Source of the DNA: a virus
Lineage: Duplodnaviria > Heunggongvirae > Uroviricota > Caudoviricetes
Reading direction: 5' to 3' (one strand)
DNA length: 12,317 nucleotides
IMG/VR virus record: IMGVR_UViG_2802429246_000010
Coordinates: 1 to 12,317 of that record
Part shown: one piece after another, positions 1 through 12,317 of the stretch
Position numbering within the stretch: position 1 is the stretch's first letter
Layout of the letters: every line of letters begins with the position of its first letter
The notes under the pieces: generated by a model
Database searches by the model: none
What the model saw: only the letters and a program-made list of their open reading frames with translations
What the model was told of the DNA's origin: nothing
Translations under genes and position numbers: made by a program

Positions 1-1632
1 ATGGTAACTCGGACAATGCAACAAAAGTATGATCGTGTTTTATCTGGCGAATCCCATCCATTCCCTGGCATATACGAGGCGGTTTCCGAACAACTCCTTT
101 TGCTCATCTTTAAGGCTCGTCAGCTATATCAGAATCCAGAATATCGCCCCTGGTTTGAAGAACAGCACAGAGTTCTCTCTGCATTACGTGCTAATACAGA
201 GCTCTTGAGAATATTTAGAGAACAAAGAAACGCGGAAGAACCAGAGCTTATTATTAAAGAATCTACATTACCCCTACTCACTAATTCTAATCTTACAGAT
301 GCGCTTAATATTATGTGCCATTTATACAATGGTTTTGATGAAGGAAATATCAGTCTGAAAACCTGGGGGGCGATGCAAGAGGTACAGACAACATCAACCT
401 TTATCAGCCCGGGACCGAGAACCTGGAAAACACCTGAACTGGCAAAGTTTGTAGGAGATGATTTATTTAATATTCTGACTGAATGTAAAGCCTGGAGTTC
501 ACCAATTCCAGCAGAAACCCGACAGGGCTATTGCCATCAGGATCTGTCTGTTGCACACTCCTGCACCTCAGAGTTACTGGCACACCTGAATCAATACCAT
601 GAAATTGATGAATCAGCAATACTTGCCAGAGTTATTGGTATGACGGTTAACGGATTCTACAAGAAAAATAATACAGACCTCCCAGAATGGCTATCCCCCT
701 TTAAAGAGGAACATAAAATATTCAGAGATTGTCTGGAGCAAAAGACCGAGGATGTAATCAGACTGAAAGAACAACTGTTGAAAACAGGACGTTCAGAATT
801 CGTGAATAATTTGTGTCGGGTCGCCAACTGGTATGAAATTAAGTCAATATACGATGAATATGTCCGTCTTTATGCCAATGAAATCATTGGTTGGTTCAAC
901 AAAACCATGGAATATTTTAAACCAACAGATTTTATCCGATATACATGGAAATTCGCAACAGTTACTCCAGGTAAAGAGACAGAAACCAAGCATACAACTG
1001 CATGGGAAAAGGATTATTGCCAGATAACTATACAACGTGATGAACTTCTGAGATTGATTCACACGAATACCCTTCAGGATGCAGTAATTTATCTTTGCCA
1101 TTGTCTGCAGAAGAAATACAAGAAATCATCCCAAAATGAGATAGAGTTTCCAGGAATAAAACCTCCGGCATCAGAGAGTGAAATTAATATAACAGATAGT
1201 TTTGAATTTTATTCTCTCCTGGAGCTCAGTAAAGATAATGAGAGACGGCTGGAAACATTTCAAAAATGGTATGAAAAAAATAAAGTTTTGTTAGAAAGTC
1301 ATAAACAAAAACGAACAGAGAAGATTGACGTTGCCGTACGACTTGTAGGGCTGAAAGCCTATGATCTGCATGAAGGGATTCCGGATAGTCCAAAACGAAA
1401 AGTTAAAGATGGCATAAATGAAGACATCAAAGCCGATACCAGTTTACGCCTGCCAAAGACAAATATAAGTGATACGTCGCTAAACCGTTATCGCCGCACT
1501 GTTAAGGAGATTATCAATAACGAAATCGACGCATTCCTGTTGGAACAGAAGAAAAAAAATAAAAGATTTCCCTACAGTGAAGATAGAGATGTGATTCGAC
1601 CTTTATGGGGAAAATGCCTGACCGGGCAGTAG
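1..1632 (+). CDS. hypothetical protein (543 aa), AT-rich accessory/cargo gene; ATG sits at position 1 so the true 5' end may lie beyond the window
   Basis: Uninterrupted 1632-nt ORF with coding-like amino-acid composition; noticeably more AT-rich than the rest of the window; followed by a hairpin terminator; no motif I can recognise by eye. Confidence 0.5.
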   Translation: MVTRTMQQKYDRVLSGESHPFPGIYEAVSEQLLLLIFKARQLYQNPEYRPWFEEQHRVLSALRANTELLRIFREQRNAEEPELIIKESTLPLLTNSNLTDALNIMCHLYNGFDEGNISLKTWGAMQEVQTTSTFISPGPRTWKTPELAKFVGDDLFNILTECKAWSSPIPAETRQGYCHQDLSVAHSCTSELLAHLNQYHEIDESAILARVIGMTVNGFYKKNNTDLPEWLSPFKEEHKIFRDCLEQKTEDVIRLKEQLLKTGRSEFVNNLCRVANWYEIKSIYDEYVRLYANEIIGWFNKTMEYFKPTDFIRYTWKFATVTPGKETETKHTTAWEKDYCQITIQRDELLRLIHTNTLQDAVIYLCHCLQKKYKKSSQNEIEFPGIKPPASESEINITDSFEFYSLLELSKDNERRLETFQKWYEKNKVLLESHKQKRTEKIDVAVRLVGLKAYDLHEGIPDSPKRKVKDGINEDIKADTSLRLPKTNISDTSLNRYRRTVKEIINNEIDAFLLEQKKKNKRFPYSEDRDVIRPLWGKCLTGQ

Positions 1633-1640
1633 ATCACTGA

Positions 1641-1676
1641 GGGGATAACAGCCCGGTTATCCCCTGTTTGTTCTGC
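1641..1676 (+). terminator. rho-independent terminator downstream of the 543-aa ORF
   Basis: 9-bp stem GGGGATAAC (1641-1649) / GTTATCCCC (1656-1664) with 6-nt loop, followed by TGTTTGTTCTGC. Confidence 0.5.
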
Positions 1677-1718
1677 TTCAGGTTGCCAGAGCTCTAGGAA
1701 CACGAGGCAATCGGCAAA

Positions 1719-2315
1719 TTATGCGGCTTTTCCATTAACAGATTCGGCCACAAGAACGACAGTGTGTTTGTTTCGCTCAGGATGTTCACTCCAGATTTCT
1801 GATTCCGGGATGCTTTCCCCGTCATAACTGATCCGTTCGCCATCAAACGGGTAATACCGTGCGGAATCAGTATCTAAAATAAACACCTTCAGATTCGTTG
1901 AACGACGCGCAATATGCTGCCAGAGAGCTTTTCCTCCTTCATATTGCTCGTTATCACTTAATAGTACAACGCCCGCTTTTGTGACTATCGTTTCATAAAC
2001 AAACGTTGCAAGACCAACATCGCGTACAGCTCCATCGACAACAATCCCTTCAATCTGAGCAACATCCTGTTCTTCCCAGAATTTCTGGACAAACACGCCT
2101 TCAAGTCGGGGACGACGCTGAAGCTCCAGAGTGGCAACAACCTTATGGCGAACATCACCATCAATAACAGAAGGTGCAGCTTCGATTACCGCAGCAAACG
2201 GAGTCTTTGGATCCCAGATGATCTGGTAAAGCACGCCCTGAATAGTTACTCCATCCAGTATCGAAAAACGACGGGCTACAGTAGCAGGGGAGTAAGACAT
2301 TGGAATTACAGCCAT
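1719..2315 (-). CDS. hypothetical protein (198 aa from ATG at 2313-2315; the track ORF extends to an upstream GTG at 2345)
   Basis: ATG at 2315 is preceded on the minus strand by AGAGGGGA about 9 nt upstream; coding-like composition; about 100 bp downstream of the integrase on the same strand; no recognisable domain. Confidence 0.5.
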   Translation of the reverse strand: MAVIPMSYSPATVARRFSILDGVTIQGVLYQIIWDPKTPFAAVIEAAPSVIDGDVRHKVVATLELQRRPRLEGVFVQKFWEEQDVAQIEGIVVDGAVRDVGLATFVYETIVTKAGVVLLSDNEQYEGGKALWQHIARRSTNLKVFILDTDSARYYPFDGERISYDGESIPESEIWSEHPERNKHTVVLVAESVNGKAA

Positions 2316-2444
2316 TTTAGAATCCCCTCTGAGTAATACAGGCACGAAAATTTACCTCAATAATTATAGTAAACAATACCAGAGCCAGGCGCATCAACAA
2401 TACTCATCAATTGTACTCAAGTCGTACAACGATCAGGAACGCCC

Positions 2445-3761
2445 TCACCTTCTACCAAACAGATTAACAACATTATTACCTGTCTGCTGTTGGTGGTTAT
2501 TAACCCGGTCCTCCCAGATCTCAAGTGCTCTGCGTTTTTCTGGCAAATAATCGTATCGATCATAATGTTTTGAACTGACATCGTTCAACGCATGATTTTG
2601 AATACGATCGCGGATTTCCTTACTGATTCCAGCTTCTCCCATTAACGTTTTACAGGTCCGACGTAAGTCACGTGCTGTAAAAATTTTAAAGTCAGGATTA
2701 CAAGCCCGGAAATACATGATAGCGCGAGCCAGACTGTCCGTACGAACCGGACGCTTACCATTAGTCGAAAGCGGGAAAATGTAAGGGCTCGATTTTTCTT
2801 TTGTTAACTCCTGCACACAAGATAATTCCTGTAATGCTGATTCAGTCAACGGTATCAAATGTTCTCGCTTATTTTTAGAGACATCCGCAGTCACCAGCAG
2901 CGTTTTTTGCTGAAAATCAACATCACACCACTGACTGGCGATCATTTCGAAGGGACGTTGCCCCCCGGTATAGATACAGAATCGGATCAAATGTTGCATC
3001 AATAATCCAACGTTGGTTGCTTCAGCAAAATGTTCCATTAGAAAACGCAACTCTTCGAGTGTCAGCCAGGTGTCACCGACTTTTTCAGCAGATGACTGTT
3101 TCGGTATCACTGATACCGGATTGGCCTCCAGCCCAAAAGTAATCCCTACACTTGTGTTCATCGGATCGTTATCAGCTTTCAGACCATAGTTAAATGCAGC
3201 CATCAGGTAAGAACGGATCCGGTTAGAGTGAACCACTGCACCGCGCTGAATGATCCCGGCCAGGATATGTTTAATCTGTCCGGAAGTCACATCTTTAGCT
3301 TTAGTCTCACGGGGGATCACTGTATAGCATTCATTTTCAAGGCGTTTCAGAACATCCTGCCATGTTCTCTTATTATCAATTTTCATTTTGTTAACATAAC
3401 CATGAATCAATGCTTCAAATGAGCCCTGTGATTGATGGAGTTGTATCCGCTGCTGTTCTGCAAGCTGTTGTCGCTCCAGTTCTGTCTGGGGATCCTTTCC
3501 TTCAATGAGCCAGGCACCATACTTTTTTGCCAGTTCATTCGCTGTAGCCAGTTTCATCTCAGGCCATATACCCAATTGAATGAATCTTTCTTTTTTCCCT
3601 TTTTCCACGTAATAGCGGAAATAGAAAATTTTGCTGCCAGAAGACTGAACTTTGATGCCAAGTCGTCCAGTGCCACGTTGAGAACTGTTGCTCCAGACAT
3701 AGAACGATGTCTTTTTTGCTTTCAATGCTCGGATAGCTGTTTCAGTTAGATTGACGGCCAT
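2445..3761 (-). CDS. int: site-specific tyrosine recombinase (phage integrase), P4-type with N-terminal arm-binding domain
   Basis: 438 aa; N-terminus (LTETAIRALK...GSKIFYFRYY...ERFIQLGIWPEMKLATA) fits the P4-integrase N-terminal domain pattern; C-terminus has the R...H..R...Y arrangement (ARDLRRT...HALND...HYDRYDY); AAGAGG RBS about 5 nt upstream of ATG at 3761; lies next to a tRNA-derived att core. Confidence 0.9.
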   Translation of the reverse strand: MAVNLTETAIRALKAKKTSFYVWSNSSQRGTGRLGIKVQSSGSKIFYFRYYVEKGKKERFIQLGIWPEMKLATANELAKKYGAWLIEGKDPQTELERQQLAEQQRIQLHQSQGSFEALIHGYVNKMKIDNKRTWQDVLKRLENECYTVIPRETKAKDVTSGQIKHILAGIIQRGAVVHSNRIRSYLMAAFNYGLKADNDPMNTSVGITFGLEANPVSVIPKQSSAEKVGDTWLTLEELRFLMEHFAEATNVGLLMQHLIRFCIYTGGQRPFEMIASQWCDVDFQQKTLLVTADVSKNKREHLIPLTESALQELSCVQELTKEKSSPYIFPLSTNGKRPVRTDSLARAIMYFRACNPDFKIFTARDLRRTCKTLMGEAGISKEIRDRIQNHALNDVSSKHYDRYDYLPEKRRALEIWEDRVNNHQQQTGNNVVNLFGRR

Positions 3762-3808
3762 AGAACCTCTTTTCTAAACCAGTAACAATCAAAATAACTC
3801 GTAAATTT

Positions 3809-3831
3809 GGGTCAGGTAATGGGTCAGGTAA
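3809..3831. promoter_or_regulatory. tandem direct repeat GGGTCAGGTAA x2 (candidate integrase arm-type or accessory-protein site) in the int upstream region
   Basis: Exact 11-bp copies at 3809-3819 and 3821-3831 separated by 1 nt, between the int start codon and the tRNA-derived core; followed by ACAATTA-type AT-rich repeats (3900-3940). Confidence 0.3.
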
Positions 3832-3957
3832 CGATCGTACAATGGAGAAAAAACGGAACCAAGCGGAAACAGAAGCAATTACATAATTACTTGATTATAA
3901 ACAATTAATAAAACAATTACGAACAAACCAAAACAATATAGAATGGACTTGCCTCAT

Positions 3958-4004
3958 GACTCATAATCGCTTGGTCGTTGGTTCAAACCCAACAGGGGCC
4001 ACCA
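3958..4004 (+). other. att core remnant: 47-nt 3' fragment of a tRNA-Ile(CAU)-like gene (anticodon loop through CCA), truncated at the 5' side
   Basis: GACTCATAATCGCTTGGTCGTTGGTTCAAACCCAACAGGGGCCACCA closely matches the 3' part of enterobacterial ileX/ileY-type tRNA as I recall it, with compensatory T-stem changes (GTTGG/CCAAC); the upstream 30 nt cannot form an acceptor or D arm, so this is not a complete tRNA. Confidence 0.65.
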
Positions 4005-4012
4005 TATCTATC

Positions 4013-4050
4013 AAGGGGTTACGTTAACAGCGTGACCCCTTCGTTTTTTC
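4013..4050 (+). terminator. rho-independent terminator immediately after the tRNA-derived core
   Basis: Stem AAGGGGT (4013-4019) / ACCCCTT (4035-4041), 15-nt loop, then CGTTTTTTC. Confidence 0.45.
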
Positions 4051-4330
4051 TAGGATACCTATAGGATACCGTGACAGAGTATAAGCAGGTATAAAAACAA
4101 CAAGTTACGCAACATCATACCTGTCATGAAACTTTAACTATCCGACATGATAGCTGGTCGATGATCACGGATAATCCGTTATGTGGATCCCCATATCGGC
4201 ATCAGACCCACCAGCGTGAAGCGTTTTTCATTTTTCGCGGGTATAAAAAATCGATGGGGCTGGCAGTCCGGAAGACGTCAGGTCACAGGGATTTGACCCG
4301 CCCCTCCCTGTGCATGAGCACAATAAGTAA

Positions 4331-4539
4331 CCGAAGGCGGAATTCCGCCCTCGGTACTCACATATGAGAAACGATATTTCTTCCACCGATACCCTTTATT
4401 TGGGTATCGCGAGTAAGCCCCAAAATCTGGGTGTTACTCTTACTACCCAAACTACGGGTAGTTTCCGTAATTTCATGGTCGAGTTGCAGATCTGCAACTC
4501 ACCCACCAGCGCAACGCTGAAAGCCAGTCAGTAAACTGG
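4331..4539. repeat. cluster of six inverted repeats/hairpins in non-coding DNA, including a perfect 20-bp palindrome at 4481-4500
   Basis: CCGAAGGCGG-AATT-CCGCCCTCGG (4331-4354); CGATACCC/GGGTATCG (4387-4409); ACTACCC/GGGTAGT (4442-4462); GAGTTGCAGATCTGCAACTC (4481-4500); CAGCG-CAA-CGCTG (4507-4519); GCCAGT/ACTGGC (4522-4539). No convincing ORF on either strand. Confidence 0.6.
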
Positions 4540-4560
4540 CTTCGGTCATTGTGCACTACG

Positions 4561-5103
4561 TTACTTGTCTTTATCCGGCTGAAACTTATCAGGCACATTT
4601 CCGGTAGTTTCCATCAGATAATCGGACAGCATTCGCGGGATGTTTTCATCAAGTTTTGTGCATGCGTTACAGGCTCTGACAACTTCTTTTTTCAGGCCAT
4701 CCAGCATGACGGGGGTCATCTGTGGGAAGCTCCTTTGCATAGTAAGCGGCAGGCTGTCCATGATTGATGAAATCTGACTCGCCAGTTTTGAAAGCGCGTA
4801 CATGCAAAACTCTGTATCAATCACGTCACCGCGATCGCGCTCGTTTTTAAGTTCCTGCGCCTCCGCCTGTGCTGTCAGTAATCTGATCCTGACTCGTAAG
4901 AGTTCATCATCATCAATCTCGCCTTTGTCGTTTGTAAGCTGGCTAATTGCATTGTTAACCCTATTGTCTATCACGCTGGCAACATCATAAAACGCCTCAC
5001 GGCCTTTACGTTCAACGGGAGTCACTCCCCACTTGTCGAATGCTGTAGCACTTACCCGGCAGCTTTGCGCCATGGTTTTTTTGTTCATCAGGTGCGATTT
5101 CAT
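4561..5103 (-). CDS. terminase small subunit, lambda Nu1-like (N-terminal winged-HTH cosB-binding type)
   Basis: 180 aa from ATG at 5103 (lambda Nu1 is 181 aa); collinear similarity to lambda Nu1 along the whole length, e.g. LTAQAEAQELKNERD..DTEFCMYALSKLASQISSIMDSLPLTMQRSFP...LDENIPRMLSDYLMETTG against lambda LTRAQADAQELKNARD..ETAFCTFVLSRIAGEIASILDGLPLSVQRRFP...LDELIPGLLSEYIEQSG; a lambda-like cos lies directly upstream. Start is ambiguous (ATG 5103 or ATG 5085). Confidence 0.8.
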   Translation of the reverse strand: MKSHLMNKKTMAQSCRVSATAFDKWGVTPVERKGREAFYDVASVIDNRVNNAISQLTNDKGEIDDDELLRVRIRLLTAQAEAQELKNERDRGDVIDTEFCMYALSKLASQISSIMDSLPLTMQRSFPQMTPVMLDGLKKEVVRACNACTKLDENIPRMLSDYLMETTGNVPDKFQPDKDK

Positions 5104-5109
5104 CAATAT

Positions 5110-5300
5110 CCCAACTTGGTCAAGGTTTCAGGTTGGTGTGTTGGTGTTATCTTTCCCTTTTTATTCATGGAGATAGAGCAAACAACAAAACCACCACCAC
5201 CACCCTGAAAAAGCTCATAAATAGCGAAAAACCGCGAGGTCGCCGCCCCGTAGCCTACCGGATCGCCGGAAAGGACCCGCCAGCCAGAACGGGCCCTAAT
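5110..5300 (-). other. lambda-type cohesive-end site (cos); cosN 12-nt overhang sequence at 5237-5248, diverged cosB-side region 5110-5214
   Basis: Minus strand reads GGGCGGCGACCTCGCGGTTTTTCGCTATTTATGA (plus 5215-5248), matching the lambda left end GGGCGGCGACCTCGCGGGTTTTCGCTATTTATGA at 33 of 34 positions including the full cohesive-end 12-mer; sequence then diverges from lambda before the Nu1-like start. Confidence 0.8.
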
Positions 5301-5304
5301 TTCA

Positions 5305-5688
5305 TCAACCAATCAACTTATAGCGACCATCCCGTGCATTGCGGCGTACACGCTCAATCTTGAGGCATAGCGCCGCATCTGGCTTTTTTGGGACAGGTAC
5401 GCGGCAATATTCAGAAGCTCGAGGAATATTGTTTATCCAGTCGATCACTTCGCTTAAATACCAGGCCTTACGCCCTTCCGTAACCTGTACGCGTTCGGGG
5501 AACTCTCCGCGAGCCTCAAGGTTTAGCAATGTGCGACGGCTAAGGGTAGTAAGTTCCATCACCTGATTCATATCAACAAGGCGTTCACTTAAACGCATTT
5601 TGTCAGCAATAGCCTTTAATTCCTCTACTGCTGGATCCGGATACATCATTTCGGCAATTGGCTTAAGGTCATTGTAATGATTCTGCAT
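5305..5688 (-). CDS. AlpA/Vis-family HTH DNA-binding protein (127 aa, with an N-terminal extension of about 30 aa)
   Basis: Core RLVDMNQVMELTTLSRRTLLNLEARGEFPERVQVTEGRKAWYLSEVIDWINN fits the AlpA pattern; AGGGGGA RBS 5-6 nt upstream of ATG at 5688; stop lies about 57 bp from cosN. Confidence 0.7.
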   Translation of the reverse strand: MQNHYNDLKPIAEMMYPDPAVEELKAIADKMRLSERLVDMNQVMELTTLSRRTLLNLEARGEFPERVQVTEGRKAWYLSEVIDWINNIPRASEYCRVPVPKKPDAALCLKIERVRRNARDGRYKLIG

Positions 5689-5699
5689 TGTATCCCCCT

Positions 5700-6041
5700 T
5701 TACACACGAGCCAGCGGCTGAACAGAAATACCTGAGCCAACAAACGCGGCAACCTTTGCCGACAGTTCTTTTACAGACTCAGGCCAGTTCAGAGCATCAA
5801 CATTTAAAACACCTGTCTTATAAACCTGTGCCTGTGTTTTTTTCGCTGTGTCGATTTGTACAGCGGAAACATAAACCGCTTTGCCTGCGCTCGTTCCATC
5901 CCATACCACTAGCGCACCAGTTGCATCTTCCTGCATCAGTGGCGTAAACGCAGGTATTACCCCTTTATTGGCTGAAAATATCCCCAGCGTAGTAACCAGT
6001 GCTTCAGTGCCAGACATGAGTTCAGTGTAATGAGTAGCCAT
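5700..6041 (-). CDS. head decoration protein, lambda gpD-like
   Basis: 113 aa; TPLMQEDATGALVVWDGTSAGKAVYVSAVQIDTAKKTQAQVYKTGVLNVDALNWPE...AFVGSGISV aligns with lambda gpD [55 protein letters not shown]...AFAGTAISIV; AAGGGGGAG RBS overlaps the stop of the upstream capsid gene. Confidence 0.8.
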   Translation of the reverse strand: MATHYTELMSGTEALVTTLGIFSANKGVIPAFTPLMQEDATGALVVWDGTSAGKAVYVSAVQIDTAKKTQAQVYKTGVLNVDALNWPESVKELSAKVAAFVGSGISVQPLARV

Positions 6042-6050
6042 TGCTCCCCC

Positions 6051-7097
6051 TTAGCCAATGCGAACGGTAACAAAACGATTGATGCGGGCCGGTATTGGCT
6101 GTGGTGCTGAATGTGTCTGCACATATTCAATAGCCGGATCACCAGGCACAATATAGTTTTTCGGTGCAAGTTCGGCTTTAGTCAGCCCCATCCGAATTAG
6201 CTCCGGATCCTGAATACCGCCATAAGCGACAATCCCCTGAAGAGCCGTATTGCCAAGCACCATCAAATCAGGATCAAGGAAATATTTTTCAGTTCCGTCC
6301 TCGTCGGTATAACGCCCGCTGTAAACAACAATCGCAACATCGCCCATATACCCTTTAAAACTCACCGAATCACCAAGGTCTTTAAGGGCCGTTTCCAGTT
6401 CGGAATTAGAACCACGACGGGTATCCAGAGCCTCTTTTATCGCTCTGAATGAACGGTATTTCTTCCATACATTACCGCCCATAATGATGATATTAGTGAC
6501 GCCCTCACTAAATTCTGCGTAGCTCTCAATATCATCATTTGGATCAAAAGTTTCTTTATCCTTACCTGACCACTCAGCACCGCCAGACTGCGTGATAATA
6601 TTTTGTGGTTTTATATTCCAGTCCAGTTCATAACGTTCAATACCATCGCCCTCAATGATATTTTTCCCCGTTGTGATTGCCTGAACAGCAAGCCATTCAA
6701 TACGTGCACGTATAGCTTTAGCCTGATTTACAATCGCCTGTTTAACTTTAATATTACGCGCCCCAAAAGCATTGTATTGTTCAGGTGATACACCAGCAGG
6801 GCGCACAGCTAACTTATTTGGATCAATGCTGCTTTTCGGTTTCATATAGCCAGGGCGAATTGTTTTTGATTCGTATCCCTCATCTCGTGAAACTTTACTG
6901 CCCACCATAGGAGAGCAAAACGCCGCGATCGGGATATTTGGATCGTCGATCGTATCAAGAATAATGTCTCTCGATTCAAACATTACCGAGCGAGTGAAAA
7001 ACAAACTGGTAAACAACGCATTTAATTTTTTTTGCACATCTTCAGCATTAGCCACCTGCACAAGCTGTGTAGGCGAATATAAATCAACCATACTCAT
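6051..7097 (-). CDS. major capsid protein, lambda gpE-like (start at ATG 7097 or 7091; track ORF extends to 7178)
   Basis: Strong collinear similarity to lambda gpE, e.g. ITQSGGAEWSGKDKETFDPNDDIESYA...YRSFRAIKEALDTRRGSNSELETALKDLGDSVSFKGYMGDVAIVVYSG...MVLGNT...GDPA against lambda ITQSGGTEWSKRDKSTYDPTDDIEAYA...FRSFKAVKEKLDTRRGSNSELETAVKDLGKAVSYKGMYGDVAIVVYSG...MVLGNT...GDPA; N-terminus MSMVDLYSPTQL parallels lambda MSMYTTAQLL; AAAGAGG RBS just upstream. Confidence 0.85.
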   Translation of the reverse strand: MSMVDLYSPTQLVQVANAEDVQKKLNALFTSLFFTRSVMFESRDIILDTIDDPNIPIAAFCSPMVGSKVSRDEGYESKTIRPGYMKPKSSIDPNKLAVRPAGVSPEQYNAFGARNIKVKQAIVNQAKAIRARIEWLAVQAITTGKNIIEGDGIERYELDWNIKPQNIITQSGGAEWSGKDKETFDPNDDIESYAEFSEGVTNIIIMGGNVWKKYRSFRAIKEALDTRRGSNSELETALKDLGDSVSFKGYMGDVAIVVYSGRYTDEDGTEKYFLDPDLMVLGNTALQGIVAYGGIQDPELIRMGLTKAELAPKNYIVPGDPAIEYVQTHSAPQPIPARINRFVTVRIG

Positions 7098-7262
7098 CCT
7101 CTTTACATTCATTACAAATAATTGTGAATATATTCTATTACCGATGTCTGCTATGCGAATACATGCAACCAAGTGCAATGTTGTATAAAATATGCCGTGA
7201 CAACTTCAGTGCTGATAATTCGTGTTAATGTATTTACTTCCTTTGGTCGGGATTTATGTAGC

Positions 7263-7302
7263 ATGCCGGAAAATCTATTTTTTTCCGGCATCTTTTTGTT
7301 TG
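7263..7302 (+). terminator. strong hairpin plus T-tract (terminator-like, plus-strand orientation) upstream of the capsid gene
   Basis: 11-bp stem ATGCCGGAAAA (7263-7273) / TTTTCCGGCAT (7281-7291), 7-nt loop, then CTTTTTGTTTG. Orientation is antisense to the surrounding minus-strand genes, so its function is uncertain. Confidence 0.35.
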
Positions 7303-7375
7303 CAGAATTTAAAACGGTATATTATCGCCGTACGGATCATCATTCCCCGACTGTTGTTTTGCCCTGTTCAGTGCG

Positions 7376-7732
7376 TCAGTGGCCTGCCCCTGCTGGCCTT
7401 TTTTTGCCGCCCGGTCGCGCCGTTCGCGCACTGATTACGCTGTCTGCGATAACCTGCCAGCCCTGCCGCGTTTCGCCGTTCTGGCCTGTCCACTGGCTTA
7501 CCTGCATGTTACCCGCCACGCTCACCAGTTCGCCTTTGTGGTGTTTTGCCAGTGCGTCGGCCTGTCTGCCAAACGCCAGGACGGATAACCACATCGTCGC
7601 CGTTCCGTCATCTGCCTGGCTGCACGGAAGGGGGACCGCCATACTAGCCATCGCCATTTGTGTACCCTTGCTGGTGGTCTTTAACTGCGGGTCAGCCACC
7701 AGCCGTCCGTAAGCCGCTATCTGTGCTGTCAT
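7376..7732 (-). CDS. single-stranded-DNA-binding-like OB-fold protein (118 aa) with a basic C-terminal tail
   Basis: Pattern YGRLVADPQL...TMWLSVLAFGRQADALAKHHKGELVSVAGNMQVSQWTGQNGETRQGWQVIADSV parallels E. coli SSB (VGNLGQDPEV...[52 protein letters not shown]); GGAGAG RBS; ATGA start/stop overlap with the upstream gene. Confidence 0.5.
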   Translation of the reverse strand: MTAQIAAYGRLVADPQLKTTSKGTQMAMASMAVPLPCSQADDGTATMWLSVLAFGRQADALAKHHKGELVSVAGNMQVSQWTGQNGETRQGWQVIADSVISARTARPGGKKRPAGAGH

Positions 7733-7971
7733 GCTGTCTGCTCTCCGGTTTTAACGTTGATGGTTGTTACCTGTTCCGCTTCGGCAATCTCCCGTTCTGT
7801 CATCGTGGCAAAGTTTGCAGCTGCCGTTGTCATGAATGCGCTAATCAGTTCGGGATGTGCTTTCGCATATCCTTCCCCGGCGTTGCGGTCGATGATTTTT
7901 ATCGCCACTCTCAGCCAGTGCTCTGTAAGGTCAATAGCGCGGTAGTGTGGTTGTTTGCGGTTTGCCTTCAT
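7729..7971 (-). CDS. hypothetical protein (80 aa)
   Basis: ORF whose stop overlaps the start of the SSB-like gene (ATGA); coding-like composition; weak RBS; first gene after the iteron origin. Confidence 0.5.
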   Translation of the reverse strand: MKANRKQPHYRAIDLTEHWLRVAIKIIDRNAGEGYAKAHPELISAFMTTAAANFATMTEREIAEAEQVTTINVKTGEQTA

Positions 7972-8011
7972 AGTTCAGATCTCAATTTTTCGTATATATA
8001 TACAAAACAGT

Positions 8012-8334
8012 GCGGGTTATGCGGGTTAGCGGGTTAGCGGGTTATCTTCGCTTGCTAAGTATTTTTTATTCATTAATATCAATACATTACAAAATTAACT
8101 GTTTACTGTTTAGCCGTGGCGTAACCCGCAAAATGCTCAAAATAACCCGCAAACGGGGTTTTTTCTGCGGGTTACGCGTGGCTGTTTGCTGTCACTTCCT
8201 GTTATTCATCTGCGGGTTATAATCGCACTTTTGTGGGTTATAACTGCCGTTTTGCGGGTTACGTGCGGGTTATTGATTTCCTTTTTATTCATGCAGTTAA
8301 TGCACTTATACACAGAGTAACCCACATAACCCGC
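8012..8334. repeat. iteron-type replication origin: about 13 copies of GCGGGTTA (both orientations) flanking an AT-rich unwinding stretch
   Basis: Four tandem copies at 8012-8044; reverse copies TAACCCGC at 8122-8129, 8143-8150, 8327-8334; forward copies at 8167-8174, 8212-8219, 8254-8261, 8265-8272; variants GTGGGTTA (8233-8240) and TAACCCAC (8318-8325); AT-rich segment 8050-8110; located immediately downstream of the replication gene. Confidence 0.75.
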
Positions 8335-8357
8335 AACTTTTCACCTCACACAGGGGG

Positions 8358-10481
8358 TTAATCTTCTGCCTCAGGCTGGAACATCAGCACGTAAAAAACA
8401 TGCTGCTTCCCCCCAATTTTGCCGAGAGCCTTTTTCTTGTAACGGCGATCGTTACCCGCTTCCAGCATTCCGGCAGCACTCAACGCGCGGGCAAAGTGGG
8501 ACGGGTTAAATCCCTGTGCGATCTCCCCCTCAAACACATGAGGAAACGTGTAAAAACGGAACTCATCATCTTCATTTCTGATACTCCCCTTTCTGTATCC
8601 GGCAAGGTCTTTAATCGGTAAATCACGTTCATCACTGTTTGGGTAAGGAAGGTATCGACTGAACCCGAACGACGACAAAAACGCCTCAGCCTGTTCAACC
8701 ATCTGTTTAAATTCCCTGTTACCCGTGCCGAACTCCTTCACCCAGGCATTAAAGTTATGCTGTATTGCGTCCCGGCATTCCTGCGCGGCCCAGCCAGTTA
8801 CATGACCGGAAAGCACAAGCGCGGCCTCCAGTATGGCGAAACGCTCACCCACGCGGTGGACCTGCTCGCCGTAGCTCTCCGGTATCAGGTTGCGCCACCG
8901 TTCGCGGCATTCCCTTACCGTATCCTTTGCCTCCTGCTGGTGGCCTGCCAGCCATTTAACCCACTCACGACCCGCTGCCCCGTGATTTTCTGTCCAGGCA
9001 TCCTTTAACGCGTCTGCGTGCGCCTTTCCGGTGCTGTATTCGTGAAAGTGCGTGGCTTTTTCCATCGGAACGTTAAGCAGGCGGACAAGCTGCCCCGCTT
9101 TGACTTTTATCCCCTCCGTTTTGAGGAATGTCTCAACGTCCATTTCTCCGGTGCTGATTGCCACCGTGCGCCAGTGTTTTATCTCCCGGTTGCCGCCGTC
9201 CTTCGCCCCCTGTAATTTCCCGGAACCGTTAAACAACGTATAGGCTGACGTGGACACCTCCCGCGCGTTTCCGGCCTGGCCTATTTCATCCAGGGGTAAC
9301 AGCCCGTCGTTGTGCGCCTCTGCCTCGTTAGCGATACCTAACGCTGTGCCGTACCAGGTCAGCCGTTGTGCGTCCGGCTCTCCCCATAAACTTGATGCGA
9401 TGTTCTGCGTGGTGGTTTTCCCTGCCGATGACTGTTCGAAAAGATGTACCCCGAAGCCGTCAGCACCAACAAGGCCAATCAAAGGTGCTGCCAGTGACGT
9501 GGCAACACCCAGCATCATGGACGGATTGCCACCAGCCAGCCGCGCCACGCAGTCGCGCCAGCCCTCCGACGTACCCGCAACCGAATAGCCATTAACAGTG
9601 GCACTTTTTCCGGTAAACAGGATCGGTTTTTCAGAATCACCAATGATTGAGCCGTCCGGCATGATATACGCGCCAAAATGCCAGCCCGTTGTTGTGCTTA
9701 GCTGCCATTCCTCATGGCTTCCGCTTAACTGCATCCAGTCAGCCAGGATAGCCCTGTATTTGCCGTTTGTTGTCACGTTCAGCCCGTGATCTTTAAGCAA
9801 CCGCCAGCCGTCACGGTCGCCAATGCCACCACACGGGATCGCCATTGTGATGACTTCATGGTTTGCTAATTTTTTCCAGCGCATCACGCGGTAATGCTCT
9901 TTACCGATCGTCCCTGTTCCCAGTAGTTCAAGCGGAGAACATAACCACGTCTCAGGCCGGATAATTTCGCCTGACTGCTTATCCACTTTGGGCGTTACCC
10001 AGAAAACACCATCGACGCGACTTTCAACGCGGGGCTTTAATTCATCATCCTGATAGCATGGCTCTTTTTTCTTTACAGGCAGTTCAACTACCTTTTTCTT
10101 TTCCGCCTGCTCTGCCCGTTCACGTTCCAGATATTCACGCCAGTTCTCCCGTTTCTGGCTGTGCATTCCTTCAGGGTAATAATCAGCATCCCTGACACCT
10201 GCCGCTGCCAGTTTCTGCCCGATGGTATTAACAAGCCCCGGACGCAATAACCCCGCCTGATAGAGACGCACGCGATAGCGTCCGTCCGGTACGATTTGCA
10301 GGTTGTCCAGTTCGGCAAGTTGTTGCTCTCCAAGCCAGACAGGAGGCACGTTATCGCCAGCCAGTCGCCCGTCCTGTTCCTGCCACTGCTTCGCATGTGC
10401 CCACGCATCACTACCCGCAAAAATGATGACTTCCGTCATTTTGTCACGTGGCTGGTGTTTTAAATTTGGCGCTTTTTTCAT
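8358..10481 (-). CDS. replication initiator, primase/helicase-like P-loop NTPase (707 aa from ATG at 10481)
   Basis: Large ORF with Walker A-like SSAGKTT and Walker B-like LLPLDEIG motifs; GGAGAGAG RBS upstream of ATG at 10481; start overlaps the stop of the upstream gene (ATGA); cognate iterons immediately downstream. Family assignment is by context and motifs, not by confirmed homology. Confidence 0.8.
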   Translation of the reverse strand: MKKAPNLKHQPRDKMTEVIIFAGSDAWAHAKQWQEQDGRLAGDNVPPVWLGEQQLAELDNLQIVPDGRYRVRLYQAGLLRPGLVNTIGQKLAAAGVRDADYYPEGMHSQKRENWREYLERERAEQAEKKKVVELPVKKKEPCYQDDELKPRVESRVDGVFWVTPKVDKQSGEIIRPETWLCSPLELLGTGTIGKEHYRVMRWKKLANHEVITMAIPCGGIGDRDGWRLLKDHGLNVTTNGKYRAILADWMQLSGSHEEWQLSTTTGWHFGAYIMPDGSIIGDSEKPILFTGKSATVNGYSVAGTSEGWRDCVARLAGGNPSMMLGVATSLAAPLIGLVGADGFGVHLFEQSSAGKTTTQNIASSLWGEPDAQRLTWYGTALGIANEAEAHNDGLLPLDEIGQAGNAREVSTSAYTLFNGSGKLQGAKDGGNREIKHWRTVAISTGEMDVETFLKTEGIKVKAGQLVRLLNVPMEKATHFHEYSTGKAHADALKDAWTENHGAAGREWVKWLAGHQQEAKDTVRECRERWRNLIPESYGEQVHRVGERFAILEAALVLSGHVTGWAAQECRDAIQHNFNAWVKEFGTGNREFKQMVEQAEAFLSSFGFSRYLPYPNSDERDLPIKDLAGYRKGSIRNEDDEFRFYTFPHVFEGEIAQGFNPSHFARALSAAGMLEAGNDRRYKKKALGKIGGKQHVFYVLMFQPEAED

Positions 10482-10777
10482 TTCTGCTCTCTCCACGCGG
10501 CAATCATGTTTTTCAGTTCCTGTAGTTTTTTATCCACATTCACACGTGACACATGGTTATTTCTGGAAAGCGGGATTTCCCGCCTGAATCTGCTAATAAA
10601 GATCTCCACGTTCAGCGAACTATGAAATGAATAGCCATCACGAATAAAATACACACGGTCAAACATTATCGATTTTACTGTTACTCTGTTGCCGTTCTTA
10701 TCCCGATAAATAGCGCCGGGGATAATTTTGGGATGTGCATAACCGCTGGCAGTCAAGCCAGATAAATACGTTCTCAT
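10478..10777 (-). CDS. hypothetical protein (99 aa), translationally coupled to the replication gene
   Basis: ATG at 10777 with GGGGA upstream; stop overlaps the primase start codon. Confidence 0.55.
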   Translation of the reverse strand: MRTYLSGLTASGYAHPKIIPGAIYRDKNGNRVTVKSIMFDRVYFIRDGYSFHSSLNVEIFISRFRREIPLSRNNHVSRVNVDKKLQELKNMIAAWREQK

Positions 10778-10783
10778 GATTAT

Positions 10784-11104
10784 TTATCCCCGATTTGAAT
10801 CAGTATTCGCTTTCTTTATGGCATTTAATGCATCTGTGGCATTTTCAATGGTGCACCGTAACGAAATATCAAAATGTCCAAGCATTGCCAGTAACAAACC
10901 GATATTACCCATATCAATGCGCATGGCCTTTTCGTCATAGTCCTCATTTTCTGACGCATGCCACATCAGGCTACCAATTGACGCAACGGCCATTGATATA
11001 TTGTCAGTCGCCCCATCCGCAGCGGAATAAACCTTTTTAGCAATATCATGCTCACAGTTAAAATGCGGATTAATCAGGTACTGGTAATTTGACATATCAG
11101 GCAT
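10784..11104 (-). CDS. hypothetical protein (106 aa)
   Basis: ATG at 11104 with AGGGGG RBS 7 nt upstream; coding-like composition; start overlaps the end of the upstream small gene. Confidence 0.6.
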   Translation of the reverse strand: MPDMSNYQYLINPHFNCEHDIAKKVYSAADGATDNISMAVASIGSLMWHASENEDYDEKAMRIDMGNIGLLLAMLGHFDISLRCTIENATDALNAIKKANTDSNRG

Positions 11105-11300
11105 GGCACACCCCCTGACGAATACGGGCGGCGAATACCATCACGCAGCCAGCCGGGGATTGCTGGCGTGCTTCCTGTTCGCTGGTGGCCACGATGGTAA
11201 TCACACGCGGTTTTGCGGCGCTCAGGGCGATAAAACGCCAGGCGAATTTATTCAGGTTGTGCGAATCCCGCCCTTGCGGGTGTATGGTATGATTTCTCAT
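11097..11300 (-). CDS. small protein (67 aa), possibly Icd-like (P4-type host cell division inhibitor family); first gene of the leftward operon
   Basis: ATG at 11300 with GAGG 6 nt upstream; MRNHTIHPQGRDSHNLNKFAWRFIALSAAKPRVITIVATSEQEARQQSPAGCVMVFAARIRQGVCHA; the FAWRF...EAR...FAAR pattern recalls Icd-like proteins (from memory, unverified). It is the only coding-like stretch of the otherwise implausible 334-aa track ORF. Confidence 0.45.
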   Translation of the reverse strand: MRNHTIHPQGRDSHNLNKFAWRFIALSAAKPRVITIVATSEQEARQQSPAGCVMVFAARIRQGVCHA

Positions 11301-11337
11301 AGCTACCTCGATACTCTCGTTATCGTTGGTGGTTAGA

Positions 11338-11383
11338 AGCCCTGCGAGTGGTAACGACACTTGCGGGGCTTTGTTTTTTGTTG
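11338..11383 (+). terminator. hairpin plus T-tract (terminator-like, plus-strand orientation) in the divergent regulatory region
   Basis: 11-bp stem AGCCCTGCGAG (11338-11348) / CTTGCGGGGCT (11360-11370) with two G-U pairs, 11-nt loop, followed by TTGTTTTTTGTTG. Confidence 0.3.
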
Positions 11384-11396
11384 CACTTACTGTTAA

Positions 11397-11440
11397 TGTA
11401 CGTACGTAATATTGATGATAATAGGAGTTACGTACGTACA
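11397..11440. promoter_or_regulatory. twin operator: two copies of the self-complementary 10-mer TACGTACGTA (13-bp inverted repeats TGTACGTACGTAA / TTACGTACGTACA) 30 bp apart
   Basis: Copies at 11399-11408 and 11429-11438; the second lies between an AGGAG (11423-11427) and the ATG of the RHH gene; a TAATAT -10-like hexamer sits between the two copies. Confidence 0.5.
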
Positions 11441-11631
11441 TGTCAACATTAAAGCGGGATAAATCACCACGCGGCGAGGGATGGTCGCCGACATTCCAGA
11501 TACGAATTAGCAAAGAACTACGCCAGCAAGTAAACGAGGCAGCAACCGCCGATGGCCTAACCCTCGGCAATTGGTTTAAAGAATTAGCTCGTGCCGAACT
11601 AAAGCGACGTGGCATTGAACCTAAAGGCTGA
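11440..11631 (+). CDS. ribbon-helix-helix (CopG/Arc-like) DNA-binding regulator (63 aa)
   Basis: FQIRISKELRQQVNEAATADGLTLGNWFKELARAEL fits a beta-strand/helix/helix RHH pattern; the gene begins directly after the palindromic operators and is divergent from the replication operon. Confidence 0.55.
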   Translation: MSTLKRDKSPRGEGWSPTFQIRISKELRQQVNEAATADGLTLGNWFKELARAELKRRGIEPKG

Positions 11632-11634
11632 TGT

Positions 11635-11760
11635 ATGACTGAAAAGCAGACCGATAACAAACTTTCTCTACCAGAGAATAAACCAGCAGGCTTCTTACCA
11701 AGAAAAATCCTTGATGAGATCAAACGCCGCCAGCGGCGCAAGGCCAAAGAGCTGGAGTAA
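11635..11760 (+). CDS. small basic ORF (41 aa), not in the supplied track
   Basis: ATG 4 nt after the RHH stop with AAGG upstream; MTEKQTDNKLSLPENKPAGFLPRKILDEIKRRQRRKAKELE; plausible but too short to judge by composition. Confidence 0.3.
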   Translation: MTEKQTDNKLSLPENKPAGFLPRKILDEIKRRQRRKAKELE

Positions 11761-11817
11761 CCATCACCAGCGCCGTGGTGCGGTGAACTGTGGCGCACAG
11801 GGTTACAGGTATCTACG

Positions 11818-11997
11818 ATGACTGACAAATCATTAAAGAAATTATCCTCATCCAAGAAAAAACAACGCAAAAATGCGGTAAACGAACATGAACCGGAGAG
11901 ATTCGCACCATGTGCGTTTATCCTTGAGAAGTACCTTAAAGAGTATTCTAGGAAAATACGCTCATTGCAGGCATGGCAGCGAATCGAGCCAGACTGA
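11818..11997 (+). CDS. small basic ORF (59 aa), not in the supplied track
   Basis: ATG at 11818; MTDKSLKKLSSSKKKQRKNAVNEHEPERFAPCAFILEKYLKEYSRKIRSLQAWQRIEPD; N-terminus resembles the 41-aa ORF (MT-D/E-K); weak RBS. Confidence 0.25.
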   Translation: MTDKSLKKLSSSKKKQRKNAVNEHEPERFAPCAFILEKYLKEYSRKIRSLQAWQRIEPD

Positions 11998-12107
11998 TAG
12001 CATTGCCCACCAGCCAACAACCTGGTATTCTGGATATGCTCAAGTTTAGTGTTATGCCACTGGCGGCCCTCTGCGGTCGCCTTTGTTTTATGTGCCATCA
12101 CTCCCCC

Positions 12108-12317
12108 TTACACCGTCTGCGTTCTGCGAGTGGATGCAAGATAAGCATCGAGATCAGTGCGCATATACAGCACTTTGCGCCCCAGCTTATGGAAAGGGAT
12201 TTTTACCTTGCCAGTACAGGCCCAGTTCGCCAGCGTTTGATTGTTAACGCCAAGGTAGGCAGCAGCTTCAGCACGTGTAAGGCGGTCAGTTGATAAATCA
12301 GATTTCTTTAAATTCAT
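12108..12317 (-). CDS. excisionase/AlpA-family HTH DNA-binding protein (69 aa; start codon at the window edge, so it may extend upstream)
   Basis: LTRAEAAAYLGVNNQTLANW...GKVKIPFHKLGRKVLYMRTDLDAYLA matches the excisionase-type HTH pattern; position and orientation suggest an int-alpA-type pair with an integrase beyond the window edge. Confidence 0.7.
   Translation of the reverse strand: MNLKKSDLSTDRLTRAEAAAYLGVNNQTLANWACTGKVKIPFHKLGRKVLYMRTDLDAYLASTRRTQTV

Follow-up and report, generated by a model that had tools for sequence, protein, structure and literature searches.

The stretch analysed here (the window) comprises 12,317 nucleotides, positions 1 to 12,317 of the IMG/VR virus record IMGVR_UViG_2802429246_000010 (Caudoviricetes). 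It carries a phage satellite of E. coli of the phage-inducible chromosomal island (PICI) type, ~10.6 kb in size, in which a lambda-like cos packaging site stands directly before a gene for a small terminase (TerS) of the Nu1 family. The cos features are read on the minus strand and numbered from bp 1 = 5248, the first base of the cohesive-end sequence GGGCGGCGACCT. The cos site as we read it spans 5104-5279 of the window, and together with terS it contains the following features:

5268..5279 (bp -31..-20), minus strand: cosQ / R4 box CGGGTCCTTTCC, with sequence and spacing as in lambda and phage 21
5237..5248, minus strand: cosN cohesive-end sequence GGGCGGCGACCT, the sole exact match in the window, with flanks tacg...cgcg
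5214..5226 (bp 23-35), minus strand: invariant block CGCTATTTATGAG, overlapping the phage 21 I2 annotated at bp 30-44
5191-5204 (bp 45-58), plus strand: GGT tract CCACCACCACCACC
5183..5200 (bp 49-66), minus strand: R3-position element TGGTGGTGGTTTTGTTGT, the conserved 3' part of the GGT tract
5126..5143 (bp 106-123), minus strand: inverted R2-like element (GGTTGGTGTGTTG on the plus strand, extending to TTTCAGG)
5104..5116 (bp 133-145), minus strand: weak direct copy AGTTGGGATATTG resembling R1, adjacent to the terS start
4561..5103, minus strand: terS, Nu1-family small terminase of 180 aa, with alternative starts TTG 5106 and ATG 5088

The cos site and the adjacent terS gene

The cohesive-end sequence GGGCGGCGACCT occurs once in the window, where an exact 12-mer is expected by chance ~0.0015 times in 2 x 12.3 kb. 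Together with its symmetric flanks tacg/cgcg it is the same as in lambda and phage 21, and the sequence itself is also that of cos1 in the E. coli PICI EcCICFT073. On the downstream side bp 13-34 match lambda at 21 of 22 positions, and on the upstream side the 32 nt preceding cosN are likewise kept with lambda and phage 21, the cosQ/R4 box CGGGTCCTTTCC included. A first-pass annotation of the sequence had described a lambda-like cohesive end, a further 22 nt of near identity and then divergence, and had called for an alignment to lambdoid cos regions. That alignment agrees with the description on each count: 5280-5203 is 88–91% identical to the cos sites of over 100 lambdoid phages (E = 2e-21), and the similarity to lambda and phage 21 runs out near bp 47. 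With cosN and its flanks, a cosQ box ~30 bp upstream and an I2 region downstream, the site has the makeup of a lambda-like cos. It is followed by terS only, rather than by both terminase genes (Nu1 then A), and no gene for the large terminase (TerL) was found anywhere in the island. Between cos and terS there is no sigma-70-like promoter, and the sole terminator-like match at cos is the cosN stem.

Variants of the cohesive end were seen in one E. coli allele of the module (L020, GGGCGTCAGGCG at about 453-464) and in the E. coli PICI L007 (GGGCGTCGACCT at 6813-6824), and the phage PhiR46_1 (L033) has the cohesive end GGGCGGAAGGCG with the rest of its cos of lambda type. Satellite cosN may follow different helper lineages.

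Conservation within the site was assessed on a cosN-anchored alignment of eight E. coli versions (the window and seven alleles 84–99% identical to it) and four Enterobacter relatives, and seven of these E. coli sequences and two of the Enterobacter relatives entered the calculation of block identities. Mean identity in the cosQ block (bp -32..-19) is 0.93 when the E. coli variants are compared with one another and 0.90 when they are compared with the Enterobacter relatives, the flanks reaching 0.28-0.59; the corresponding values for the cosN block are 0.90 and 0.95. The block CGCTATTTATGAG is identical (1.00) in every E. coli and Enterobacter relative and is also common to lambda, 21 and N15. 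The loss of the integration host factor (IHF) elements proposed earlier thus applies to I1, which is undetectable, but not to the region of I2, where the overlapping block CGCTATTTATGAG is retained and invariant in all relatives.

Further downstream, the lambda R sequences of cosB are gone and the GGT tract is present, as the first-pass annotation had stated. The tract is not a mere replacement for Nu1-binding elements, however, since its 3' part is itself a conserved element at the R3 position. The consensus of this element, TGGTGGTGGT(T/G)TTGTT at bp 49-66, is conserved into Enterobacter relatives with a TerS only 57% identical, and its block identity reaches 0.96 among the E. coli sequences and 0.84 between them and Enterobacter, compared with 0.45-0.47 in the flanks. 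Its register is that of R3 in phage 21 (bp 50-65), lambda places R3 there as well, and the R3 of phage N15 lies in the same register at bp 48-59 (PMC4669245). The length of the GGT tract is constant across the alleles, with variation restricted to substitutions in the 5' repeats, which rules out a free microsatellite and fits the strict cosN–R3 spacing established for lambda (PMC9026076).

The second element, at bp 106-123, sits at the position of R2 in phage 21 (bp 107-122) and forms a 13-nt inverted repeat with bp 39-51 (92% complementary). A match to it with at most two mismatches is present at the same bp in seven of the eight relatives scanned (in Enterobacter L013, not in L010). Its block identity is 0.94 within E. 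coli and 0.60 between E. coli and Enterobacter, and that of the spacers is 0.55-0.86 and 0.17-0.47, respectively. With R3 direct and R2 inverted, both at phage 21 coordinates, the lambda/21 geometry is retained, and from its sequence cosB appears to be structured, with R elements in the lambda/21 layout, rather than replaced by filler. The R1-like copy next to the terS start is not conserved between the two genera and may equally be the ribosome-binding region; in the O145 allele (L021), R2 and a direct, R1-like copy at bp 134-144 form a perfect 11-nt inverted repeat. An N15-style remote rR2 was not found inside terS, a weak result since the same simple scan also missed the rR2 of N15 itself.

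The protein encoded by terS matches Phage_Nu1 in Pfam (E = 9.8e-23) and PHROG 57 (E = 6e-52, residues 1-174 covered). It is collinear over its full length with lambda Nu1 (37% identity, E = 1e-35) and collinear with N15 gp1 (47% overall), which bears out the earlier statement that the element has its own Nu1 homologue beside cos. Relatives of TerS were gathered through protein database and contig look-ups; a peptide-pattern scan of GTDB genomes gave nothing usable. The DNA-binding domain (residues 1-53) is 58% identical to that of N15 gp1, 30–36% identical to those of lambda and 21, and 70% identical to that of the Enterobacter satellite TerS (P0113/P0114). The recognition region ...AFDKWGV.PVE..GRE.F.DV is common to the island and N15, the helix being SATAFDKW in the former and SVQAFDKW in the latter. 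The first-pass annotation had called cosB private to the element and TerS cognate to it; cosB and the DNA-binding domain are indeed non-lambda, but not wholly private, and appear to belong to the class of phage N15, with 58% identity in the domain and an N15 R3 of the form (GTT)n in the same register. The core of the protein (residues 75-125) is 49–55% identical to lambda-type TerS and 65% to the TerS of phage PhiR5_1, and the last 55 residues are 98% identical to the TerS of the PICI L007 (P0097). The C-terminus preserves a motif found in lambda-type TerS, A.N.A....E.IP.L...Y[IL], that phage 21 gp1 does not have.

The terS gene is under purifying selection. The ratio of nonsynonymous to synonymous substitution rates (dN/dS) is 0.10-0.25 overall, 0.03-0.16 in the DNA-binding domain, which is the most constrained part, and 0.13-0.24 in the C-terminal part. 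These values bear on the reading of cos–terS as the decaying remains of a lambdoid or N15-like prophage that no longer serve in packaging. In favour of decay, the neighbouring gene for a single-stranded DNA-binding protein (SSB) is frameshifted, no helper is known, and in a 2018 study two terS-carrying E. coli PICIs showed little or no transfer (PMC6092414). On the other side, terS is intact in six of the six alleles examined. Of 5426 complete E. coli genomes, 762, some of them from O157:H7 and O145:H28 strains, carry the cos–terS module (at least 80% query coverage), without exception in one and the same satellite gene order. Conservation is higher in the non-coding subsites than in the spacers between them, and the element retains its own integrase, primase and att repeats. 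Given the selection, the prevalence and these footprints, we consider an inert remnant very improbable indeed.

Association of cosB type with the specificity protein

In every relative examined, the type of cosB follows the specificity protein encoded by the island, while cosQ, cosN and the I2-overlapping block remain helper-like. In L007, a PICI at the phoQ site of E. coli, the DNA-binding domain of TerS is 95% identical to that of phage 21 gp1, and cosB is of the 21 type with R3, R2 and R1 at bp 50, 108 and 151. The DNA of the window and that of L007 are unrelated from cosB to TerS codon ~71 and then 97–100% identical, with the breakpoint at island bp ~375. This boundary is sharp, and we therefore conclude that cosB and the DNA-binding domain were exchanged jointly as one block. 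In EcCICFT073 the same slot after cos is occupied by rppA, with yet another cosB.

The Enterobacter relatives (L010-L015, L026, L027, L029) interrupt the major capsid gene (gene E) of a lambda-like prophage near codon 91, so that the helper is known in their case. Those with terS have a cosB of the GGT type, whereas the terS-less L029 has a lambda/helper-type cosB. An E. coli counterpart of the embedded Enterobacter element was searched for and not found. The embedded copies differ from one another in the genes after int, which encode a TIR-domain protein, a CoiA-like nuclease or a DUF2971 protein.

The cos of L007 (6770-7000), with its whole tripartite cosB, is close to identical in sequence to that of phage PhiR5_1 (L034). 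Judged by this likeness, L007 seems to mimic the cosB of a helper, rather than to avoid it, while encoding its own TerS.

Within terS, codons 126-180 (4561-4725) are mosaic among the E. coli alleles L019, L020 and L021, with a synonymous divergence (dS) of ~1.1, whereas the middle of the gene has 0.07-0.14. The protein tails of the E. coli alleles differ (...PDKDK, ...QKKGE, ...LNKDK). This pattern indicates a second recombination point inside the gene.

Proposed choice of DNA and supply of the large terminase

Since cosB type tracks the specificity protein of the island, a division of labour in which the island TerS chooses the DNA and a helper TerL cuts it is well supported by comparison. 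We hold it to be moderately likely that the island TerS picks island DNA through the island cosB and that the TerL of a lambda-like helper cuts the shared cosN. The satellite would rely on a lambda-like helper phage, the kind of helper suggested by the relatives that are embedded in lambda-like prophages. The parts of cos used by TerL (cosQ, cosN and the I2-overlapping block) are lambdoid-like, and the part read by TerS carries a distinct, GGT/GTT-rich R3 (bp 49-66) and an inverted R2 (bp 106-123), which would be matched to the island protein with its predicted N-terminal winged helix-turn-helix (HTH) domain of the N15 class. After induction of the helper, the island TerS would bind R3 and R2 in the cosB of replicated island DNA and would position the helper TerL to nick cosN, presumably at 5237-5248, and island rather than helper DNA would be packaged. 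Published genetics agree with this scheme. TerL is bound by the C-terminus of TerS (PMC6739421, PMC9026076), and the helper enzyme may be recruited directly or through mixed TerS oligomers. Termination would take place through the shared cosQ, cosN and I2, and in published genetics this step is independent of cosB specificity (PMC4669245).

Neither the lambda nor the 21 terminase packages cosB-N15 DNA (PMC4669245), and by analogy with N15 the island cosB would be poorly used by such helpers alone. Four island copies (10.6 kb each, 42 kb) would fit a head of lambda size, which agrees with the statement that cos islands need sizes that are fractions of the helper genome (PMC10530653). The first-pass annotation had proposed a hijack of packaging specificity along these lines, with the gpA of the helper as the cutting enzyme. 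The logic stands as the best-supported reading, given that the island has no TerL and that cosB follows the specificity protein; the recruitment of gpA is the conjectural part, since the C-terminal domain shares only 36% of its residues with TerS of the lambda type and 45% with that of the closest phage.

Several observations weigh against the choice of DNA by TerS with direct recruitment of a helper TerL. The C-terminal, TerL-binding block of the island TerS is 36% identical to those of lambda, N15 and the Enterobacter helper and 45% to that of the closest phage, PhiR5_1, whereas the blocks of lambda, N15 and the Enterobacter helper are 81–93% identical to one another. Lambda and 21, with 31% identity in this block, are assigned separate TerS–TerL pairs in the literature. 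In the embedded Enterobacter satellites the TerS C-terminus is 38–40% identical to that of the known helper, no closer than to other TerS, which rules out that it copies the helper's. It is on account of this divergence that we infer, rather than assert, the recruitment of TerL by TerS. As for cosB itself, the inverted repeat of R3 and R2 went undetected in three of the five other relatives scanned, and the R1-like copy has three mismatches to the R2-derived motif, the five matches seen against 3.8 expected by chance being not significant alone. The I1 consensus for IHF has no match in the window or in the E. coli variants, in a scan that did detect it in lambda and 21, used as controls, and in one Enterobacter relative. 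An AlphaFold model of TerS, used for the order of secondary structure only, predicts a helix-turn-helix, a beta-hairpin wing and long helices at low confidence (pLDDT 66), and Foldseek of this model against PDB gave no match at E <= 0.001, the top entries being MerR-type winged-HTH regulators. Finally, no helper has been identified for this island type, and the poor transfer of terS-carrying PICIs in the 2018 study counts on the same side.

The diverged C-terminal block, with no special likeness to a helper, keeps alive a second explanation modelled on Rpp. Here the island TerS would have no TerL binding of its own and would form mixed dimers or oligomers with the helper TerS; these would read the island cosB, the C-terminus of the helper TerS would supply TerL, and the same mixed complex would block helper packaging. 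Rpp, encoded in the same slot directly after cos in EcCICFT073, works in this way (PMC6739421). Co-assembly with a helper TerS is conceivable from the identity of the cores (49–55% to lambda-type TerS, 65% to PhiR5_1), and the C-terminal block stands apart from those of all phage TerS sampled and is highly variable among satellite alleles. The island protein is full length, however, compared with the 144-153 aa of Rpp, which is without the last 30-40 residues (PMC9026076), and its C-terminal part keeps the lambda-type motif and is under purifying selection at the dN/dS of 0.13-0.24 given above. Moreover, it has no detectable similarity to RppA (BLASTP E = 1.3; hhalign probability <1%), and the linker in which lambda TerS acquires Rpp-escape mutations (residues 50-70) is largely absent from it. 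Taken together, we judge this mode to be unlikely, though a serious alternative to direct recruitment of TerL by the island TerS.

In a third explanation, TerS would be mainly an interference device that blocks helper packaging as a decoy, by titrating the TerL of the helper or by binding its cos, and the island cos would be packaged by the helper terminase with low specificity. Cloned PICI cos sites with a foreign cosB are still packaged, less efficiently, by lambda or phi80 alone (PMC6092414, PMC6739421), an N15-class terminase acts on lambda cosB at about 50% (PMC4669245), and interference with the helper is general among PICIs. This account leaves unexplained the conservation of R3 and R2 at fixed spacing across genera, the joint exchange of cosB and the DNA-binding domain, and the helper-type cosB of the terS-less variant, and we regard it as distinctly improbable.

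The island among cos satellites and phages

The closest known systems in overall layout are EcCICFT073 and the other Rpp-type cos PICIs. They have the same kind of backbone, with gpE-like capsid and gpD-like decoration genes (c1499/c1500 in EcCICFT073; PMC6092414) and then cos, and share with the island a lambda-like cosQ and cosN, a non-helper cosB, a candidate R3 at bp 48-65 and a specificity gene right after cos. In the island this gene encodes a full-length 180-aa Nu1-family TerS with a C-terminal domain, whereas theirs encodes an Rpp of 144-153 aa. The DNA-binding domain of Rpp looks lambda/21-like on visual, unquantified inspection of the alignment, compared with the N15-class domain of the island TerS. 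Furthermore, the island cosB is longer than that of EcCICFT073 and has an inverted R2, and the island has one cos instead of two. We therefore place the island outside the Rpp type, whose defining feature was looked for and is lacking: membership and homology were rejected because the gene in the rpp slot is a Nu1 homologue with the negligible similarity to RppA described above. A phmmer search of TerS against PDB sequences retrieved neither the lambda Nu1 domain nor the Rpp entries. The 127-aa HTH protein encoded upstream of cos was also considered as an Rpp and ruled out, being AlpA-like (PDB 8c3t).

The proposed Rpp site of EcCICFT073, GACACCACCACCAC (L005 2605-2625, cos1, bp 52-65), is of the reverse-complement type of the island GGT tract and resembles the inverted R2 of the island, ACACCAACC. 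This likeness may be due to chance, or may be a trace of shared descent of the Rpp-type and TerS-type cosB.

Among phages, N15, taken in packaging specificity with the Monarch prophage group (PMC4669245), has the closest TerS, at the identities given above. The R3 of N15 (bp 48-59), GAGGTTGTTGTT, has the same G-N-T periodicity and register as GGTGGTGGTTTT in the island, with an identity of only 7/12. The island differs from N15 in its lambda-type cosN, in its inverted R2 at ~bp 106-123 as in complex cosBs, in its C-terminal domain (36% identity) and in having no TerL. In lambda and phage 21, cosQ, cosN, the I2-overlapping block, R3 and R2 follow one another in the same order, orientation and spacing as in the island, and terS likewise lies immediately downstream; in the island the R sequences are unrelated to theirs, the I1 consensus is lacking, no TerL gene follows terS, and cosB is ~45 bp shorter (terS start at bp 146, compared with 189-191).

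Other satellites offer partial parallels. In the pac-type Staphylococcus aureus pathogenicity islands (SaPIs) SaPI1 and SaPIbov1, as would be the case here, a satellite homologue of TerS diverts the helper TerL to satellite DNA. In these islands packaging is of the headful (pac) kind, TerS belongs to an unrelated family and interference falls to a separate protein, Ppi, whereas the mechanism predicted for the present island is of the cos kind with a Nu1-family TerS; by analogy, the island would work like a cos-mechanism counterpart of the SaPI TerS strategy. The Enterobacter relatives, placed within gene E of a lambda-like prophage, correspond to helper-embedded PICIs (PMC10111431), and the terS-less L029 with its helper-type cosB corresponds to the cos SaPIs, SaPIbov5 for example, that simply carry the helper cos. 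Unlike both of these groups, the island in the window has a chromosomal att site, its own terS and a non-helper cosB.

The pairing of a lambda-like cosQ and cosN with a different cosB in E. coli PICIs was reported in 2018; Rpp supplied the explanation in 2019, and a detailed model of cos came in 2022 (PMC6092414, PMC6739421, PMC9026076). The 2018 paper noted that certain E. coli PICIs, those of strains IHE3034 and 18098, encode TerS (PMC6092414). A search of the accessible literature turned up no work on the cos architecture or mechanism of terS-type cos PICIs. The concept is thus already published for E. coli PICIs, and the terS-type variant appears unstudied; what is added here is the R3/R2 anatomy, the assignment to the N15 class, the cassette exchange with its sharp breakpoint, and the contrast between terS-less and terS-carrying embedded satellites. 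Rpp is the only worked-out mechanism for Gram-negative cos satellites, and the origin of Rpp and the reason for the difference in cosB were questions raised by those who discovered it. With a full-length TerS in the rpp slot, a matched cosB and natural domain swaps, islands of this type offer a concrete candidate for the ancestral state.

As a speculative extension, which we put forward with considerable doubt, the TerS proteins of enterobacterial cos satellites may be modular chimeras, in which cosB and the matching DNA-binding domain are swapped as a cassette among at least three lambdoid specificity classes (lambda/21-, N15- and Rpp-type) and joined to a satellite-specific core and a C-terminal domain that captures helper TerL, with Rpp as a truncated descendant. 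If this were true, satellites would stay orthogonal to any helper through cassette swaps, and the divergence of the C-terminal domain would reflect its evolution into a module for capturing TerL that outcompetes the helper TerS. Satellites of this type, in about one-seventh of complete E. coli genomes, are vehicles of horizontal transfer. The natural chimeras could be used to dissect how DNA recognition by the N-terminal domain at R3 and R2 is coupled to TerL recruitment by the C-terminal domain, and the pairs suggest orthogonal cos/TerS combinations for engineered packaging, such as cosmid-like delivery or PICI-based "drones".

The remaining features of the island, outside the cos–terS module, are as follows:

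4052..4072: attR core (ACGGTATCCTATAGGTATCCT on the minus strand), a 21-bp direct repeat with its partner 10,584 bp upstream in E. coli A36; the element ends here
5305..5688, minus strand: AlpA-family HTH gene, 127 aa (Pfam Phage_AlpA, E = 1.4e-8; PDB 8c3t AlpA, E = 1.6e-10), directly upstream of cos
5700-6041, minus strand: gpD-like decoration protein (Pfam HDPD; RefSeq annotation in E. coli A36)
6051-7091, minus strand: gpE-like major capsid protein (Pfam Phage_cap_E; RefSeq annotation in E. coli A36), upstream of cos in the same orientation

The window is nearly identical to E. coli A36, with 100% identity in the cos–terS segment and an 8-bp length difference somewhere to the right of terS. 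In that strain the island is delimited by the 21-bp direct repeats as an element of 10,584 bp with its own integrase at the far end, a gene that lies past the right end of the window. The minus-strand order is DUF4222, DUF927 primase, SSB (frameshifted), gpE-like capsid, gpD-like decoration, AlpA-like HTH, cos, terS and attR, and the island also encodes int, an HTH gene and an Icd-like gene. Searches with Pfam and PHROG and the A36 annotation revealed no TerL, portal, protease, tail or lysis genes in the island. This gene content is that of a PICI, the structural genes being limited to the capsid and decoration homologues as in EcCICFT073. It is not that of a capsid-forming PICI (cf-PICI), since of the TerS, TerL, portal, protease, capsid and connector set only the major capsid protein, the decoration protein and TerS are present.

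The AlpA-family gene at 5305-5688 is the second of its family, and it accompanies the capsid, decoration, cos and terS module in the Enterobacter relatives L010-L015 and L026. In the E. coli alleles L019, L021 and L022 its slot is filled by an unrelated open reading frame (ORF) of 137 aa that is like c1501 of EcCICFT073. The frameshifted SSB gene (7376-7732) is annotated as a pseudogene in E. coli A36. To the left of attR, window positions 1-4072 hold a second integrase-bearing island in tandem, directly after attR, with int at 2445-3761. Two of its ORFs, 1719-2345 (208 aa) and 1-1632 (543 aa), have no match in Pfam or PADLOC, and the 208-aa ORF corresponds to PHROG 7522, a family with no assigned function.

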